A DNA stretch of 64,000 nt, taken from positions 1-64,000 of IMG/VR virus record IMGVR_UViG_3300010399_000002, one strand, 5' to 3'. Positions 15,492 to 24,710 of this stretch are shown here, in pieces (the stretch's first letter is position 1; every line of letters starts with the position of its first letter). Origin of the DNA: a virus. The position numbers were made by a program, and so were the translations under genes. Below the pieces are notes generated by a model. It searched no databases and was not told the origin of the DNA. It saw only the letters and a list, made by a program, of their open reading frames with translations.

Positions 15492-15546
15492 GTTACTCCA
15501 TCCCGCCGGGACACTGGTTAGAGTGTCCCGACAGAAGGATTGTAAC
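15492..15546 (-). ncRNA. Intergenic hairpin/anti-SD element, copy 1
   Basis: GUUAC-AA-UCC-15bp stem-loop-U-GGA-GUAAC. Confidence 0.85.
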
Positions 15547-15553
15547 CTTCGAG

Positions 15554-16267
15554 TTACTTCGACAAGGGGTACGTGATCTTGTACTTGTCCCCCGTCACCT
15601 TGCACGTCCACTTCTTGCCCAGATATGCCTCGAGCTGGATGCCGTTCACCAACCGAGAGGGCTTCACCTCGCACTCCTTGGCGAGAGCGTTGATCTCCTT
15701 CTCGGTCGTGCCCTTCATGGCCAGCATGAACGCCCGGCCCATCGCGCTGCCGGCTTTGAACGGCAGATCCAAACCGCTGCCCTCGGGCTTGGCCTTCTTC
15801 TTGGGCTTGTCATCCGCCTTCTCGGACTTCTTTGCGGTCTTTTTGGTCTTGTCGGACTTCTTGGCCTTGGCCTCTTTGGCGGGCTTCTTGGACTTCACGG
15901 GCTTCTTCTTGTCTTCCACGTCTTCCTCCTCGTCGTCGGTCTCGGGCTCTTCTTCGTCTTCGGGGCTGTTGTCCTCGTCGATCTCGCTGATCTCTTCGGA
16001 CTCTTCGTCCTCTTCGGTCTCTTCCACGTCGTCTTCTTCGGGCTCTTCCGCCTCGGACTTGCTGACCTTCTTCTTTGCTGCTTTTTTGTCTGCCACTTTG
16101 TCTTTCTCCTTTTTCGGTCTGGGACCGGTTGGTTCCGCGTCGTCCAGGCAATCACTGGAACAGTACTCGCCCTTCTTACCACGGTATGTGAACGTTTTGG
16201 TGAACGGCTTGTGACAATGGTCGCAAGCGGTCTTTTTGGTTGGTTGACTCTTGTTCTCGTCTGACAC
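15554..16267 (-). CDS. Zn-finger (CxxC...YCSxxC) protein with acidic/lysine-rich linker and C-terminal small domain
   Basis: 237 aa, AAGGAGG SD before GTG, strongly biased codon usage. Confidence 0.85.
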   Translation of the reverse strand: MSDENKSQPTKKTACDHCHKPFTKTFTYRGKKGEYCSSDCLDDAEPTGPRPKKEKDKVADKKAAKKKVSKSEAEEPEEDDVEETEEDEESEEISEIDEDNSPEDEEEPETDDEEEDVEDKKKPVKSKKPAKEAKAKKSDKTKKTAKKSEKADDKPKKKAKPEGSGLDLPFKAGSAMGRAFMLAMKGTTEKEINALAKECEVKPSRLVNGIQLEAYLGKKWTCKVTGDKYKITYPLSK

Positions 16268-16295: not shown

Positions 16296-16352
16296 GGTTA
16301 CTCCATCCCACCAGCCCACTCGAATGAGTGAGCTGATAGAAGGATTGTAACC
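16296..16352 (-). ncRNA. Intergenic hairpin/anti-SD element, copy 2
   Basis: GGUUAC-AA-UCC-16bp stem-AUUC loop-U-GGA-GUAACC. Confidence 0.85.
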
Positions 16353-16354
16353 TT

Positions 16355-16696
16355 CTAACGAAAACCCCACCGAGCCATCACGTCTGGCTCCGATGCGTTC
16401 TCCATCACATCACTCGTGCAAACTGGACAACCATCATGGAGATCCTTCCGACGAAAGTCGTTAGTGAACTCGCCTGAGCAGCCCGACTCTTGCATGATTG
16501 GATCATCCCACGCGGTAGACTCCATCCGACACTGCTGCCATTCGTTTGTGCGCTTGTTGATAAACCAGTGGTCTTCCTTGCGGTGCTGCAAGGCTCGAGC
16601 ACGTTGATAAACAGAATCGAGTGTAGACGGCATCAGCTTTGACAGTAGCTTAAAAAGCCATCGCCACCTTCTATCGAACTGACCTACTGTCTGCAT
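16355..16696 (-). CDS. Hypothetical protein (MQTVGQF...)
   Basis: Start fixed by AAGGAGGCAGTAACC-ATG. Confidence 0.75.
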   Translation of the reverse strand: MQTVGQFDRRWRWLFKLLSKLMPSTLDSVYQRARALQHRKEDHWFINKRTNEWQQCRMESTAWDDPIMQESGCSGEFTNDFRRKDLHDGCPVCTSDVMENASEPDVMARWGFR

Positions 16697-16725
16697 GGTT
16701 ACTGCCTCCTTTTTGGTGGAACTCG

Positions 16726-16784
16726 AATCGTTCCATCCGGCCAACCCACTGCTGCGACAGTGAGCTGACTGAAGGACTACGATT
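16726..16784 (-). ncRNA. Intergenic hairpin/anti-SD element, copy 3
   Basis: AAUCGU-AG-UCC...U-GGA-ACGAUU; outer stem covaries with the other copies. Confidence 0.85.
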
Positions 16785-17554
16785 GGCCTGGAGACTTGGT
16801 AAGTGCCTCGTTGTCCGTCAAGCACTCGTGAACGATGAACCTCGCTGCTGCGGCTGTCTCGTCCAACGTCCCCAAATGCACTGCGCCTTCGATGGGACGC
16901 CGATCAATCTTGGTTGTCAACTGATACAGCACTCGACCGTTGACACCTTCCTCGCGCTGCTTCTCGATGGTAAACGCAATGTGGACCTTCATCTCGTATC
17001 CTCCCTAACTGGAGCTGTGGCGATCAGCCCGAACAGATGAATCGGACTGCGATCACTGTACACCATAAACACGAACAGTTGGGCCTTGCTCCAGCCTTTT
17101 TGCCTCCACGGATTGGACACCTCGCCGTGAGGTATTACAAGCACGGTGTCATTATTCTTACCGATATACCAACCCGGACCTTTGAACTTAAACGTGGGCA
17201 TCTGGAACTCCATCTTCTTTACGGTCCCGGCCATTGTCCAATCCGGATAGATGTCAAACGACAACCTGGACTGTTTCTTCGACTGTTTCTTCTTCACGGC
17301 TTCACCTTTCCGGCCTTGCGCTGCGCTTTCACAAACGCAACCAACGCCTTGTAAACCTCGGGCGAGCACTCCACTGACCAATTACGGTCAACGCGAGTAA
17401 CACAGAACTCACCAACCTCGGTGTCTACAAAGTAGTCTACGGCACCATCCTCGTCTCGAAGGTCGAGCACTTCGCCCACCTTCATAGAACCCAGAAACGA
17501 GGGCTTGAAAAACCTTTCGGGCTTTCCTTTTCGAGCCTTACTGATCTTCGCCAT
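16777..17554 (-). other. Three hypothetical genes (16777-16992, 16989-~17297, 17294-17554)
   Basis: Coupled ORFs; the first is preceded by AAGGAGGCAGTAACC. Confidence 0.7.
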
Positions 17555-17577
17555 GGTTACTGCCTCCTTTGTCTTCC

Positions 17578-17650
17578 GACCTGTCTCATCAGTGTTGGTA
17601 GGTCATTTCCAACAGAGCCTCGTAGAAGTTTTCCCACGAGGCTTTCGACA
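17578..17650 (-). ncRNA. Type II hammerhead ribozyme 1
   Basis: UGUC-GAAA-[GCCUCGUGGGAA AAC UUCUACGAGGC]-UC^-[UGUUGG loop CCAACA]-CUGAUGA-GACA; loop GACCU pairs with 3' AGGUC; predicted cut between 17615 and 17614. Confidence 0.92.
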
Positions 17651-17748
17651 AAAATACTCGAGAGTGAAACGCATGGAGATATAGGAGGCATAGCGTTACT
17701 CCACCAGTTCACTCCCGAGGTAGCCACGATCCCAAGTGACTACAAAAC

Positions 17749-18888
17749 TCAAGGTGTCTTGGTGAAGACTGCTCTCACCTCATCTTTGTTGAACTCCACA
17801 CGCCAGAAATTGTGTCTGAGGTCTTTGGAATATGCAATCAATCGCTGAGCCGGGTCGGCACACGGCAAACCGTTGGTAACATCGGCCTGCTTATGCCACT
17901 GCCCGTCTTGCAAGCGCGCCCAAATCATCGCCATGGCTGAACCTGGCGCATACATACCGCCGATCTTCTCACCTTTGGTTCGCTTGAGATTGCTCTTCGG
18001 TCCAGATGCTACACCCGGAACCTTCGGAGCTTTCGGTTTCTTGGGCTGTTTACCGTTGCCGACCACCACACCTGGCCCACCGGCTGTCCTGGCTGCAATG
18101 TTGCGAATGAGCAACCTGGAAGGTACGGTGCCGAGGTATGCCAACCAAGCATCGGCTACAGTCTGTACTGATGGAAGGACTTGGTCCAGCTTCACGACAT
18201 GCTGGCCATCGACCACCTGCACAGCGGAGGCTGTAAGCACGGTGCGAAGCTGACTCAGTAATAGTGGTAGCACCCCTTCGCGCTTGACCTGATGGTAGAG
18301 CTGTTGAGCGTATTCACGGCTGAAGGTGACTGTGCCGTTGCCGTCGAATTGTCTGGCCTTCTCGGCTTCGGCTACGGCGAATTTGATCTTCCCGCCGAAC
18401 GCCTTGTTAAGTGGAGTAACCACGGTATCGAACTTCCCGGTCAATCTGGCTTGCGATGCTTCGAGCTTTCCGCGCACCGCTTCCAGCTTCTTGTAGTAGG
18501 TCTCCATCTCGGGCATTTTGGGTATGACCTTCGACTCGCGCACGATCTTCTCGTACAAGCGAACCGCGGTACGCAGAGAAAGCTCCTGCTCTTGCTCAGT
18601 GGCACCTGGATTGATACCCAAGTTACGCGCACCGTTGGCTCGATTGTAGGACTTTTGCATCTCCGCTGACTGGGCTAGGTTAGTGTTCTGACTCAACACG
18701 TACGGCACGGCAACATCATACCAATTGATAGCTTCACTCAACGCAGTAAGCTGCATGGGAATAGAAGCTGTAATCAACTGCCTGTACGCCTTGAGTAGCA
18801 AACTGAGCTTGGGCTTGGGATACTGCGGAGCTGCTTTGACTTTCTTTGGCGCTCTCGGCGCCTTTGGTTGTCTTCTTTTGAACGGCAC
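17749..18888 (-). CDS. Hypothetical basic protein (379 aa) with C-terminal small domain shared with two other ORFs
   Basis: Long ORF, AAGGAGG SD, upstream GGTACAAT -10-like box. Confidence 0.85.
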   Translation of the reverse strand: MPFKRRQPKAPRAPKKVKAAPQYPKPKLSLLLKAYRQLITASIPMQLTALSEAINWYDVAVPYVLSQNTNLAQSAEMQKSYNRANGARNLGINPGATEQEQELSLRTAVRLYEKIVRESKVIPKMPEMETYYKKLEAVRGKLEASQARLTGKFDTVVTPLNKAFGGKIKFAVAEAEKARQFDGNGTVTFSREYAQQLYHQVKREGVLPLLLSQLRTVLTASAVQVVDGQHVVKLDQVLPSVQTVADAWLAYLGTVPSRLLIRNIAARTAGGPGVVVGNGKQPKKPKAPKVPGVASGPKSNLKRTKGEKIGGMYAPGSAMAMIWARLQDGQWHKQADVTNGLPCADPAQRLIAYSKDLRHNFWRVEFNKDEVRAVFTKTP

Positions 18889-19446: not shown

Positions 19447-19502
19447 GGTTACTCCATCCGGCCAACCCACTCGGAGAATGGGTTGACTGAAGGATTGTAA
19501 CC
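19447..19502 (-). ncRNA. Intergenic hairpin/anti-SD element, copy 4
   Basis: GGUUAC-AA-UCC-UUC-A/C mismatch-12bp stem...GGA-U-GGA-GUAACC. Confidence 0.85.
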
Positions 19503-19805
19503 TTCTAGATTACAGGAACGGCGCACTTGTGCTCGTCGGCTCGAATATCGATCATCTGACCTGAACCGAGGACTGCACTATCCCTCGCAACTGGTAGACC
19601 TGATATGCGAACGACTGTTGTGCCGTCGTCCTTGTTGTTGACGTATAGGACCCCGCGACGCTGATCCCATTCGACTTCGCAATTTTCGATACGTTGCATT
19701 TTTTCTCCTTTTACTTTTGGGTCAGTTTCCAAAGCGTTAGGAACGCCCACAGAGACAACGCGAATTTCAAAGCGGCTTCGCCTGGTTCCATTTTGTGTCC
19801 TTTCG

Positions 19806-20894
19806 TCACGCCTTGGTGGGAGGAGCTGGAAGACAGAGGCGACTCGCAGCAGCAAGGAACTTCTGCTCGAAGTCTTTGGCCCTCATGACTCGCATGAACT
19901 CCCCACCGGTGGCCTTGCACGTCTCTTCGATAGCCTTGTGCATCGGATCGGCTCCGAACAACGACGTGTCTGCGCTGCTCACCAGAAGGATCACATCCAA
20001 CACGATGTTCATCTCCTTCATGGTAGGAATCAGCGTCGGCAACGATATGGCATCGTGTGACATGCCGTCGGTCACGAGAACCACATGATGCGCTCGCAAC
20101 GGCGACGGCGCCTTCTGACAGAGCTCGATGCTGGCCTTCACGGCTGGGAAAATATCGGTCCCGCCTTGAGGCGACATCAAGTTCAAAGCGTTGAGTAGAG
20201 TATCCCGCGTGTGGGCACCTTTGACATGCACGTTATGATCGAACTCGATCAACCTGATGTCGGGGTTCTCGTACTTGTTGTAGCGTTCTTCGATAGCCTT
20301 CTTGATATGCTTCTTCAAGGCCTGCATTTTGGTCTCCAGCCCGCGGAACTTGCTATAGTCCTCTTTGACTCCGAACATTTGGGTCAGGCCGAGCATCACA
20401 ACCGCGTCTTGCAGTAAGTCCTGGTTGTGAGTGAATCCCGCCAGCGCTGCAATTGCTACCTGCGGGTTCATGGACGACTGCGCTGCGCCGAACAATTGGG
20501 CCAGCAGCGCCTCCGGGTCGTTGACGTCGGGAACCTCTTCAGCCTCTTCGACCTCCGCGACCTCGTTGCTCAATGCCGTTTGGGATTCGACGATGGCTGC
20601 TGCGATCTTGGCCATGTTCTCTTCCGTCCACTTGTACAGCGTACGCGGATTGTCGGGTAGAAGATGACCGTCCATCGAACCAGAAATGTCGACGGTGAAG
20701 ATCAACTTCAAGAACTGCTGCGCCAGATCACTCAGCGACTTCGGGCCCTTGACTGGCTCGCGTTTCGCCGTCTGGGAAAGGACGAGATCTCCGCCGACCT
20801 CGGTCATCGACTGGATGTTATCATTCTTGGACTCGTCGTCCTTCTTCTTCTCGGGCTCGAGATTGTCCAAATCCAACAAAAAATTGTCACTCAT
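19806..20894 (-). CDS. von Willebrand factor A (vWA) domain protein
   Basis: MIDAS DISGSM, GGTDI, VVLVTDG, TGGEF; start moved to 20894 (SD AAGGAGGCAGTAACC). Confidence 0.85.
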   Translation of the reverse strand: MSDNFLLDLDNLEPEKKKDDESKNDNIQSMTEVGGDLVLSQTAKREPVKGPKSLSDLAQQFLKLIFTVDISGSMDGHLLPDNPRTLYKWTEENMAKIAAAIVESQTALSNEVAEVEEAEEVPDVNDPEALLAQLFGAAQSSMNPQVAIAALAGFTHNQDLLQDAVVMLGLTQMFGVKEDYSKFRGLETKMQALKKHIKKAIEERYNKYENPDIRLIEFDHNVHVKGAHTRDTLLNALNLMSPQGGTDIFPAVKASIELCQKAPSPLRAHHVVLVTDGMSHDAISLPTLIPTMKEMNIVLDVILLVSSADTSLFGADPMHKAIEETCKATGGEFMRVMRAKDFEQKFLAAASRLCLPAPPTKA

Positions 20895-20917
20895 GGTTAC
20901 TGCCTCCTTTAGTTTTT

Positions 20918-20983
20918 TGACCTGTCTCTTCAGGACGGGTAGGTCATTGCCCGCCGACGGGAGCGACTGGCTCCCGTTTCGAC
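20918..20983 (-). ncRNA. Type II hammerhead ribozyme 2
   Basis: GUC-GAAA-[CGGGAGC CAGUC GCUCCCG]-UC^-[GGCGGG loop CCCGUC]-CUGAAGA-GAC; UGACCU/AGGUCA pseudoknot; predicted cut between 20956 and 20955. Confidence 0.92.
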
Positions 20984-22310
20984 TCACTTGCAGTCTAGGG
21001 TGATGCAATTGCCATTCTGAATCCTGGCCAAAAACTTGCTCTTTCCGGACTCCGGCAACGTTGCTTGCCAAACCGACCTGGCTTCTTTCCAGCAAGTAAA
21101 AGCCTTGCGAGTGATTGGCTCACTCTCATATCTGGTAATACCGGGCGAAAGGTTAACTGGAGCTTTCTTAATCTCTGTGTCGATGACCCAGAACTTTTTC
21201 ATGCGTTTCTCCTTTCGTACTCGTACTGGAACAAGCGCTGCTGCAACCTGACTTCGATAGGGACCTTCTGTTGATTGTACCTTTGGAGTATTGGATCGAT
21301 GTTGATAGCCTTCTCGAACGCTGCCTCGGATGAATCGGCTAGCACTCGAACAACTACCGTTGGATTGTCCATCGGAGCTTCGACTAGATACCAGGCTGTC
21401 ATTTTACGACTCCTTTGAAGTGTCGAACCTGTAACGATAGATGGTAGCCTCGTACCGCCCGGTCTTGACCCAACCGTAACCGACTTCACGATACGACTTG
21501 CGAATGTCGATCTTGCGAACGTTGACCTTGTCGGCCAACCTCGCCAGTTGGTTGTGCTTCGATACGGCCAGACCGTGACGGGGCTTGATGGACCGACTGC
21601 CGTTATCGGGATTGCGGTCAATGAAGTATCGCTCTCTCCAAAATTGGAGCTGCGACTTCGCAGCCTGCAATCGTTCCTCGGCAGATGCAGACTTCTTAAC
21701 CAGTTGGGGCTGAACCTTCCGGCCATCCGGCCTGCGGTTCTCTTTGATTCGAGCCTTCCACCTCTTGATCTCGGCTTCGAGACGCGGAATTTTTCTGGCC
21801 TCTCGTCTGGCCTTGGTGATTAGATCTTTGAGGTATTGAATGTTTGACTCACATCTGTCTCTGTCGTCTTTGTAGGGCATCAGAAAACCTCCAACTCTAA
21901 GCCCAGTGACTTCGCAATCTTGCGGGCTTGAGAAACCGGAAACCACGCAATGCCGGCCTTGTCTTCTGCGTACGCTTTGTCTTTGGACTCGAATGGATCG
22001 GGATTGCCGTCTGTGAAGTACAACGGGCCGGCAGAATTGGTCTCCAACTTCAGGAACAGCTTCTTGGCCCAGCGAAGCTTCGTATTGAGCTTCATGGTTT
22101 AGTTCACCTCCGTCTCGGACATGCGCTGCGGAATCGCCTTCGTAGCAGCCTGGTAGTTAACCCAAGCTGCGTCCTTGGCTTCGCGGCTGCCGGCCTTCTT
22201 CCAGACCTTCCATGCATCGATCATCGCGACGATAGCATCGGCCCGGCGATAAGCTAACTGCTCACGTTCACTCGTCATAGTTACTGCCTCCTTTTGTGGT
22301 GGAGTTATCA

Positions 22311-22364
22311 GTTACTCCATCCGGTCGGATCACTCAGAGAATGATCCGGCTGAAGGATTGTAAC
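22311..22364 (-). ncRNA. Intergenic hairpin/anti-SD element, copy 5
   Basis: Same consensus with a covarying upper stem. Confidence 0.85.
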
Positions 22365-23429
22365 CCTTACCGTGTCTTGATCTTCAGACCCGACTCGAGA
22401 GCCTCGCGCAGTGCCTTCGCAATTCGTCTGGCACCTCGTGTATCCCACATCCTGGTCTTTTTGTTGTACTGATATCCGTCGCAGTAACCGCCGAACACGT
22501 ATATGCCGGCGGCCTTACCTGATGGAACGATCTTGATCTCGAACTTGTAATGCTCGGTTGGTTTTCTCATGATCTCCTTTTCAAACCTTGTTGGTTGAGA
22601 TTGAACCTTTCACGACACTCCAACCGAAAGATGACCAACGACCTTCGGTTGGTCTCCACGACCTTTCGTTATGGGCGTAGGCTAATTCGATTGTAGGAGT
22701 CTCTTGCGCGTCTTCTTTGGACTCGGACGGGTAGCTCTTGACTACGATCTTGCTGACTGCTTCTTGCGTTGCAGGGTAGCATGAATCGTACCTGAGCATG
22801 TCCAAAGGGAAAGTGAATTTCCCGACCACTTTGAATCTCGTAATGTACATCATATGGCTTCGGCTTTCTCCTTTGCGGTATTGAGTAGCGATTGCAGCCT
22901 CGTGATCTCGTTCAGCAAGTCTTCTTTTCCCCACCTATAGTTTGGATTGTACTTGCCGGCCTCGAGAGCAACGTCGCGAAGAGAATTGGCTGCTGCACGC
23001 GTGCGCTGCTGCTTCTCAAGATAGGCTGTACGTTCTTCAAACGTTGCTTCATCCAATTGGTAATTGTGATAGCCAGAAGCACCTTGCAGCTTGCCGTCGG
23101 GACGAAACCGCATCGGCGATCCATCTCCGATCTTAACGTCGACGCAGCCACTCGGTGTTCTCTTGACTACCTCGCCTAGAGTGTAGTGAATATCGTGTCC
23201 GGTAAACCGAGCCAGATAAACTTGAGTCACTGAGCACCTCCCGATATAGCAACGAACACAGCGACGAATTGGTCTGGCTTCGGCATCTCCCACCGCAGAA
23301 TCTGCATGACCTTCCACGGCTTGCGCGCTGCGTCAAACCACGTGTCACCCTGCTTGGGGGCTCGCTTCTCGCCGGCTTTAAAAACTTGGGCTTTCATGGT
23401 TACTGCCTCCTTTTAATTGGTGGATTCTT

Positions 23430-23483
23430 GTCGTTCCATCCGGTCAGCCCACTCGCAGAATGGGCTGGCTGAAGGACTACGAC
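23430..23483 (-). ncRNA. Intergenic hairpin/anti-SD element, copy 6
   Basis: GUCGU-AG-UCC...U-GGA-ACGAC. Confidence 0.85.
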
Positions 23484-23934: not shown

Positions 23935-23999
23935 AGGTTACTCCATCCGGCCAAACCACTCGCATTGCTGCGAATGATCTGACCAAAGGATTGTAACCT
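23935..23999 (-). ncRNA. Intergenic hairpin/anti-SD element, copy 7
   Basis: AGGUUAC-AA-UCC-19bp stem capped by a GCAA tetraloop. Confidence 0.85.
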
Positions 24000-24012
24000 G
24001 TTTCCCGTGCAG

Positions 24013-24710
24013 AGCATCTACTGAGCTGGCACGTAAGTGTTACTAAGTATGCAAGCTAGCTGTGGATGTCTTCGCGCTGGCTACCATTTGGAAACCTTTG
24101 GTCGCTTTCTCGTGGCCTTCTGTCGTAGAGTCAGCTTGGAGGACATCACGTTGCGTCACTCACTAGTGTACTAGTATAGAGTAGACCAGTCCGTTCAGTG
24201 CGCAGGGAACATAAGCAGAACCTGCAGGCATTTCCGACTCGGCTTGGACCAGATGAATCTTCGGTCTCGAACCATCGAGCGCTCGTCTTCGTTCAATCAC
24301 CATGGGTTGTGGTATTGAACCAGCGTCTGCTATTCGGTTTTCAAATGCGGCTGTTAACCGCGCTGTCCCTGTAGTACTAGTGAGATCCTGCGAGAGCTCA
24401 TACGGCGCTTCGCAAGTGGGGCATTCCCAGCGGTACCGACTGCAAACCTTGGAAGGCTCGCTTCATTAGGCACTTCAGTGCTGGTGGTTGAACCCTTGAC
24501 TCTCAAGAACCCTTGGGGAGCTCAGCGTTGAATAGCGCTGCGAGATCCGGTAAAGCTTCTCGCCTCCGTAGAAGGAGCCAAACCAAACGAAAACGTAGTC
24601 GGTGGTTGCGAAGGTATAACCGGCGTTGGTCCCTCGGGGCGCCTGGCACTTTGGCCCCTTCGCGTATTCGGTTGGTTGGTTTGCTATTCGCTTCATCACA
24701 GTAGAACACT
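24013..24710 (-). ncRNA. Putative ~700-nt highly structured non-coding RNA
   Basis: No credible CDS; 5' and 3' ends pair; many nested long-range helices; TATACT box 7 nt upstream. Confidence 0.7.

Follow-up and report, generated by a model that had tools for sequence, protein, structure and literature searches.

The DNA studied here belongs to an uncultured phage whose 114.7-kb IMG/VR genome has direct terminal repeats and is estimated to be complete. We analysed a 64-kb window of this genome (64,000 nucleotides), in which all sizeable frames are on the minus strand and which codes for a terminase, a DNA polymerase, a helicase and an SbcCD-like nuclease. Among isolates, the terminase is closest, at about 40% identity, to those of Aeromonas phages 51, 56 and vB_AsaM-56, and no close relatives of the DNA polymerase or of the 379-aa protein described below were found in viral contigs. 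From about 24.0 to 14.8 kb runs a series of small genes without family matches, whose junctions carry either a long hairpin (seven junctions) or a hammerhead (two junctions). The hammerhead at the junction of main interest (HH1, a flagged element of 76 bases) is on the sense strand of this one-direction gene array, and the only other copy in the genome (HH2) lies further upstream in the same operon. The junction is organized as follows.

17749–18888, minus strand: upstream gene, 379 aa, without family match, with its stop 98 nt 5' of HH1
17655–17745, minus strand: spacer with two stem-loops that separates the upstream stop from HH1 (from sequence and fold)
17575–17650, minus strand: HH1, the complete type II ribozyme with its 3' pseudoknot tail
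17552–17569, minus strand: cassette AAGGAGGCAGUAACCAUG of the 86-aa gene, after HH1
17294–17554, minus strand: downstream gene, 86 aa, without family match, with its AUG 60 nt after the predicted cut
20916–20984, minus strand: HH2, the only other genomic copy

The second stem-loop of the 17655–17745 spacer has a 13-bp base and the loop UGCCUCCU (17683–17690), whose 8 nt are exactly complementary to the ribosome site AGGAGGCA; UAUUUUUGU comes after this stem-loop. The hairpin and UAUUUUUGU could act as a partial intrinsic terminator or as an anti-ribosome-site element; a terminator scan made no call at 17655–17745, since its rule does not admit so large a loop. Two open frames that cross the region, one of 44–56 aa on the coding strand (17727/17691–17557, through HH1) and one on the plus strand (17505–17684), were set aside as by-products of the RNA element.

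The 86-aa gene starts within an 18-nt cassette that recurs in the operon. The 18-mer AAGGAGGCAGTAACCATG is present in the genome as four exact copies and one with a single mismatch, as against 0.03 expected by chance, and all five are confined to the operon between about 24.0 and 14.8 kb. Each copy lies directly 3' of an RNA element, which is a hammerhead in two cases (HH1 and HH2) and a long hairpin in three. The initial annotation had placed the HH1 ribozyme in the slot that hairpins fill at other junctions, and as anatomy this is right. Because the cassette has UAA two bases before its AUG, upstream frames that are in phase stop right at the start codon. The cassette copies other than that of the 86-aa gene, each directly after a hammerhead or a hairpin, and the long intercistronic hairpins identified by folding are the following.

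16694–16711, minus strand: cassette copy
20892–20909, minus strand: cassette copy
22276–22293, minus strand: cassette copy
23395–23412, minus strand: cassette copy
15492–15557, minus strand: long intercistronic hairpin
16296–16358, minus strand: long intercistronic hairpin
16715–16780, minus strand: long intercistronic hairpin
19447–19508, minus strand: long intercistronic hairpin
22311–22370, minus strand: long intercistronic hairpin
23430–23480, minus strand: long intercistronic hairpin
23935–24000, minus strand: long intercistronic hairpin

The seven hairpins consist of about 25–28 near-continuous pairs with a purine bulge (AA/AG) and a covarying outer stem, either GGUUAC/GUAACC or AAUCGU/ACGAUU. 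They had no family match in Rfam, and a 14-mer scan of other viral contigs gave single matches only; these lacked the remainder of the motif and were rejected as chance. By analogy with the T7 early transcript, the hairpins look like sites for a double-strand-specific nuclease (RNase III-type) or like 3' stabilisers. In several of the folds, their 5' UCCUU is instead paired to the ribosome site that comes next.

HH1 was dissected on the minus strand. Its 5' part reads UGUC-GAA-A(GCCUCGUGGGA-AAAC-UUCUACGAGGC)U-C, up to the predicted cut, and its 3' part UGUUGG-AAAUGACCUA-CCAACA-CUGAUGA-GAC-AGGUC-GGA, with the following elements in 5' to 3' order.

17644–17649, minus strand: 5' strand of stem II, GUC (17649–17647), and core G12 A13 A14 (17646–17644), from sequence
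17616–17643, minus strand: stem III hairpin, 17643–17632 paired with 17627–17616, from sequence and minimum-free-energy fold
17615, minus strand: C17, with the predicted scissile bond 17615/17614, from hammerhead numbering and model alignments
17593–17614, minus strand: stem I, UGUUGG (17614–17609) and CCAACA (17598–17593), loop AAAUGACCUA, from sequence and fold
17586–17592, minus strand: core strand CUGAUGA (C3–A9), from sequence and both model alignments
17583–17585, minus strand: 3' strand of stem II, GAC, giving 3 bp that include the usual G10.1-C11.1 pair, from sequence
17578–17582, minus strand: 3' tail AGGUC, which pairs with GACCU of loop I (17604–17600) to form the pseudoknot, from sequence

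All the elements listed in the initial annotation were found on this strand: the complete core (GAAA, a CUC triplet and CUGAUGA), three stems and the GACCU/AGGUC pseudoknot. The conserved catalytic residues C3 U4 G5 A6 N7 G8 A9, G12 A13 A14, the A15.1-U16.1 pair and H17 are all present, and the cleavage triplet is CUC. Counted from A15.1 (17643)-U16.1 (17616), stem III has 12 bp and an AAAC loop, whereas stem I has 6 bp and a 10-nt loop. The permutation is that of type II, stems I and III being capped by loops and stem II open, as seen both in the fold and in the full-length alignments to both models. The pseudoknot that most type II members have, in which loop I forms at least four pairs with the stretch immediately 3' of stem II, here comprises 5 Watson-Crick pairs, with a possible sixth pair, U17605-G17577. 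This is the architecture that the annotation had named as that of bacteria and phages, and it agrees with the consensus of Perreault et al. 2011, which includes the loop I/3'-tail pseudoknot (PMC3088659). The two finer positional claims, a predicted cut between 17615 and 17614 and a spacing of 8 nt before the ribosome site, also hold: the first agrees with hammerhead numbering of the sequence, and the second corresponds to 17577–17570, which separates the pseudoknot from AAGGAGGCAGUAACCAUG (17569–17552). The minimum-free-energy fold calculated with ViennaRNA gives stems I and III (z = −3.46), and none of 200 shuffled sequences folds as well.

We then looked at family membership. On a 101-nt slice containing HH1, the Rfam type II model RF02276 aligned over model positions 1–66 with 26.7 bits (E 5.4e-4), and on a slice of about 100 nt HH2 scored 33.3 bits. 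The cmsearch with Hammerhead_II suggested at the outset thus gave an end-to-end alignment of HH1 but a score below the Rfam gathering cut-off of 37 bits, which HH2 did not reach either; this cut-off is an operational threshold and not a structural feature. No hammerhead was reported by the Rfam scan of the whole window at gathering thresholds, by the scan of a 301-nt slice at E≤10 or by the genome-wide search with RF02276. Since slices of about 100 nt returned both matches, these blanks are losses to filtering and not absence: with 301 nt or more to scan, the Rfam speed filters discard both hammerheads, and on short slices these filters are laxer. The low RF02276 score of HH1 has three sources, namely the 12-bp stem III, which turns nine residues into insertions, the 15.2-16.2 pair, which is G-C and not C-G, and the extension of stem I into part of loop I in the Rfam model.

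A second covariance model, R1, was built from an alignment (A1) of 40 hammerheads from other viral contigs, the sequences of the window being excluded. With R1, HH1 reached 65.0 bits (E 5.6e-16) over model positions 1–64, and HH2 (20984–20916) reached 66.6 bits. The next-best match, at 16.3 bits (E 0.024), covered nothing but the model's two ends, its middle being deleted, and is noise, and nothing credible besides HH1 and HH2 was found by R1 over the full genome of 114,732 bases. A further R1 match at 24239–24181 on the minus strand (13.3 bits, E 0.17) has a broken core (CUGAACG) and an unworkable stem III and was rejected as a ribozyme; lying in the gene-free stretch 24013–24710, it is probably a chance match or a decayed copy. 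A 30-nt pattern of the 3' half matched twice in the window, compared with 0.00 expected from 100 shuffles. A chance or coding origin of HH1 is excluded by the model scores.

The Rfam cut-off proved conservative for the UGACCUA sub-type, since the RF02276 run at gathering threshold missed six sites of the same sub-type in other contigs that had R1 scores of 75–83 bits (for example L005:810-873 and L011:1469-1532). The sub-type does belong to RF02276, because several of the sites found by pattern were called Hammerhead_II by Rfam above the cut-off (for example L003 6830-6893 and L017 9783-9850). As both copies in this phage score below the cut-off and are lost to the speed filters, routine annotation undercounts the sub-type.

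HH2 reads AGUC-GAA-A(CGGGAGC-CAGUC-GCUCCCG)U-C up to its predicted cut between 20956 and 20955, and GGCGGG-CAAUGACCUA-CCCGUC-CUGAAGA-GAC-AGGUCA after it. The two copies have the loop I residues AAUGACCUA and the tail in common. They are separated by nine compensatory double changes (three stem I pairs and six stem III pairs), with pairing always kept, and in addition by one G-C to G-U change; core position 7, where either base is permitted, is U in HH1 and A in HH2. A mechanically called frame (19806–21095, TTG start, 429 aa) passes through HH2; instead, this VWA-domain gene most likely begins with the AUG at 20894 (362 aa), behind a standard cassette.

The wider family was recovered by scanning viral contigs with the 3' half alone (pattern UGACCUA-N4-9-CUGANGAGACAGGUC), the 5' half being left unspecified. 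This pattern-only search is the unbiased one, some of the 40 members of A1 having been chosen by a descriptor that requires pairing. It returned 35 loci in unrelated contigs. Among 29 distinct sites, 28 had a fully complementary 5' strand of stem I, all 29 had UH plus CGAAA and 27 had a stem III hairpin, and these sites contained 19 different stem I and 25 different stem III sequences. In A1 (39 distinct members), 95.6% of cells were paired, as compared with 34–40% with slid partners. Double changes occurred in 13 of the 21 pairs, pseudoknot included (5 of 6 in stem I, and likewise 5 of 6 in stem III), and the covariation score was 0.574 (0.145 when shuffled). Three pairs of the pseudoknot covary, as in UGACCU/AGGUCA, UCGCCU/AGGCGA and GGUCCU/AGGACC, and the pairs of stem II are invariant or G-C/G-U across the 39 members. 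The modal design of the family (stem I of 6 bp, 10-nt loop, stem II of 3 bp) is that of HH1.

In 380 kb of DNA fetched from IMG/VR contigs (loci L001-L035), R1 found 114 hammerheads. In these other contigs they are single or form arrays, with up to 16 copies in the 14.6-kb locus L035 (IMGVR_UViG_3300033551_000003). Loci L027, L028, L033, L007 and L011 hold 6–9 each, roughly one per small gene, and in dense arrays neighbouring copies carry different pseudoknot sequences. One contig with several type II copies also has a type III hammerhead (L030:5388-5440, plus strand; Rfam RF00008, 51.8 bits).

The placement of the ribozymes relative to genes was surveyed at 105 distinct sites, with upstream frames of at least 45 codons. 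The upstream stop codon ends on base 1 or 2 of the ribozyme in 63 of the 105 (UAA-GUC or UAG-UC, inside stem II) and falls within 8 nt 5' of it in a further 22. Counted from where the model match ends, the next ribosome site and start codon come after a median of 16 nt (10th–90th percentile 13.5–31.5). HH2 fits this rule exactly: its upstream stop UGA (20986–20984) overlaps base 1 of the ribozyme, and the start codon comes 21 nt after the match. HH1 fits the downstream half, with 20 nt from match end to start codon, but departs from the abutting arrangement of most members in that its upstream stop is 98 nt away with two stem-loops between. The words "stop codon" and "Shine-Dalgarno" are both absent from the 2011 paper of Perreault et al., and no description of this regularity was found in the literature searched. 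A stop inside stem II and a start about 16 nt downstream would constitute a general design rule that is open to further checking.

Altogether, the sequence, fold, family membership and position of HH1 are direct observations, and they indicate that the 76-base element is very probably a genuine self-cutting type II hammerhead RNA between two genes. We consider it likely that HH1 is functional within a long minus-strand polycistronic mRNA and uncouples the neighbouring cistrons. Upon folding, the loop I/3'-tail pseudoknot would hold stems I and II parallel, and the 2'-OH of C17 (17615) would attack its own phosphate, cutting the RNA between 17615 and 17614. On the upstream RNA, which carries the 379-aa gene, this would leave a 2',3'-cyclic phosphate behind a terminal hairpin, the 12-bp stem III. 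The downstream piece would open with the stem I hairpin, bearing a 5'-OH (a hairpin-pseudoknot leader of 60 nt); 28 nt after this hairpin would come a strong standardised ribosome-binding site and then the 86-aa gene. The predicted minimal fragments of HH1 are of 36 nt (17650–17615) and 39 nt (17614–17576). As the most likely consequence, the two cistrons would be uncoupled, each piece gaining structured and chemically unusual ends, and stability and translation would no longer depend on the flanking RNA. At seven other junctions the same job would apparently be done by the long hairpins, probably as host RNase III-type or stabilising sites.

Cleavage of the polycistronic mRNA by HH1 is what its perfect core and the activity of its family lead one to expect (PMC3088659; PMC8782182). 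In ribozymes of this class, the pseudoknot aligns stems I and II, and the products of the cut after position 17 carry a 2',3'-cyclic phosphate and a 5'-OH, respectively. The rate falls 20- to more than 100-fold when the pseudoknot is shortened or mutated (PMC3088659). Type II hammerheads of the design of HH1 cleave in vitro, and prophage clusters of hammerheads cleave during transcription of native RNAs of about 2 kb and in E. coli (PMC3088659). Three type II hammerheads also cleave in Desulfovibrio vulgaris, giving minimal fragments of 29–32 nt and 39 nt (PMC8782182). Uncoupling of transcripts has been proposed in general terms for bacterial and phage hammerheads (PMC6765202), and for HH1 both uncoupling and stabilisation are inferred. 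An unmasking of the ribosome site by cleavage found no support in base-pair probabilities. For HH1, ribosome site and start codon had a mean unpaired probability of 0.68 with the RNA uncut and again 0.68 once cut; for HH2 the values were 0.61 before cleavage and 0.56 after it. Folding thus lends no support to an effect on translation.

Some observations weigh against this main reading. The 15.2-16.2 pair is G-C, giving CUC in place of the usual GUC of the family, and is found in only one of the 39 members; the RF02276 score is below the curated cut-off and stem III is unusually long; the nested fold prefers a helix between UUUUGUC (17653–17647) and GACAAAG (17573–17567) that replaces stem II; and the hairpin and U-run just 5' of HH1 could stop some transcripts early. 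They also bear on two other explanations. HH1 might be a conditional ribozyme that cuts only in some states and regulates the 86-aa gene rather than simply processing the transcript, the states being set, for example, by the UUUUGUC/GACAAAG helix, by the UGCCUCCU loop being engaged or free, or by ribosome traffic. We regard such a switch as unlikely. The alternative helix, which takes in the first bases of the ribosome site, does appear in the minimum-free-energy folds of HH1, and the exact 8-nt complement of the ribosome site held by the upstream hairpin loop speaks for it as well, as does the stop codon inside stem II of most family members, since a terminating ribosome must therefore melt the ribozyme. 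However, both the alternative helix and the upstream hairpin lack an equivalent at HH2, the predicted accessibility of the ribosome site is unaltered by cleavage, and the folding program cannot score the pseudoknot, which favours the active form.

Somewhat less probable again is that HH1 is an inactive or very slow relic whose hammerhead shape is kept and serves only as a structured spacer or stabilising pair of hairpins. Such RNAs exist, some hammerhead-like RNAs having been inactive in the study of Perreault et al. (PMC3088659), and the CUC triplet, the stem III of 12 bp and an Rfam score under the threshold are deviations from the family norm that would fit a relic. Yet every core position conforms, the pseudoknot and the stem I/stem II geometry are those of the modal family design, and an identical G15.2-C16.2 pair is present in a family member of another contig (L022); the nine compensatory changes between HH1 and HH2 moreover argue for selection on the fold. 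Hammerhead cleavage yields ends compatible with RtcB (5'-OH and 2',3'-cyclic phosphate), and the genome holds just two copies, which point the same way and flank a single gene block, so one may ask whether the pair releases the 3.3-kb block 20955–17615 for joining into a circular RNA by a host RtcB-type ligase; this is very improbable, as the phage encodes no RtcB or RNA ligase domain, no sequence feature brings the ends of the block together, and hammerheads elsewhere are single or in arrays (at most 16 per 14.6 kb), which fits plain processing.

Returning to HH1 as a probable processing element that would uncouple cistrons, the recurrence of one cassette type after either kind of RNA element raises a broader idea, which we put forward tentatively: hammerheads and long covarying hairpins may be interchangeable intercistronic modules, each fused to the standard 18-nt cassette. 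If so, the early operon would be made of natural 'insulator plus standard start' units, ribozyme cutting would stand in for cutting by a host nuclease at two junctions, and bacterial and phage hammerheads, whose biological role has been described as unresolved (PMC6765202), would gain a concrete and testable job. The operon offers a clean natural comparison, with one cassette type after either a hammerhead or a long hairpin. A hammerhead/hairpin swap or a dead core at this locus would directly test the effect of cleavage on the stability and translation of the flanking genes.

Compared with known systems, HH1 is a further example of a well-known class in a typical setting, both class and arrangement having been known since 2011. 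The type II hammerheads of bacteria and prophages have the same core, permutation and pseudoknot (PMC3088659; RF02276) and, like HH1, lie on the sense strand between small phage genes (PMC3088659). Relative to the RF02276 norm, HH1 and HH2 score low (26.7 and 33.3 bits, both under 37) and HH1 has a 12-bp stem III and CUC instead of GUC; unlike most type II members, it is preceded by a 98-nt structured spacer after the upstream stop and does not abut it. The prophage clusters of Clostridium scindens, Azorhizobium caulinodans and Agrobacterium tumefaciens likewise have several ribozymes per polycistronic transcript, and in these clusters as in this phage the ribozymes bracket blocks of genes without assigned function (PMC3088659). 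This phage differs from the clusters in having two ribozymes only, the other operon junctions carrying its own phage-specific long hairpin.

Two systems outside this class are also comparable. In the T7 early transcript, RNase III hairpins between cistrons are the sites at which the long early mRNA is cut, and they need the host enzyme. The likeness to HH1 is one of function only: in both cases the upstream piece ends, or for HH1 would end, in a protective hairpin and the downstream piece starts shortly before a ribosome site, whereas the hammerhead would cut itself, leaving a 5'-OH and a cyclic phosphate. RiboJ is a synthetic insulator derived from a type III hammerhead of a satellite RNA. 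Like HH1, it places a hammerhead before the ribosome site, so that the downstream leader is constant whatever lies upstream, and HH1 would be a putative natural insulator of this kind.
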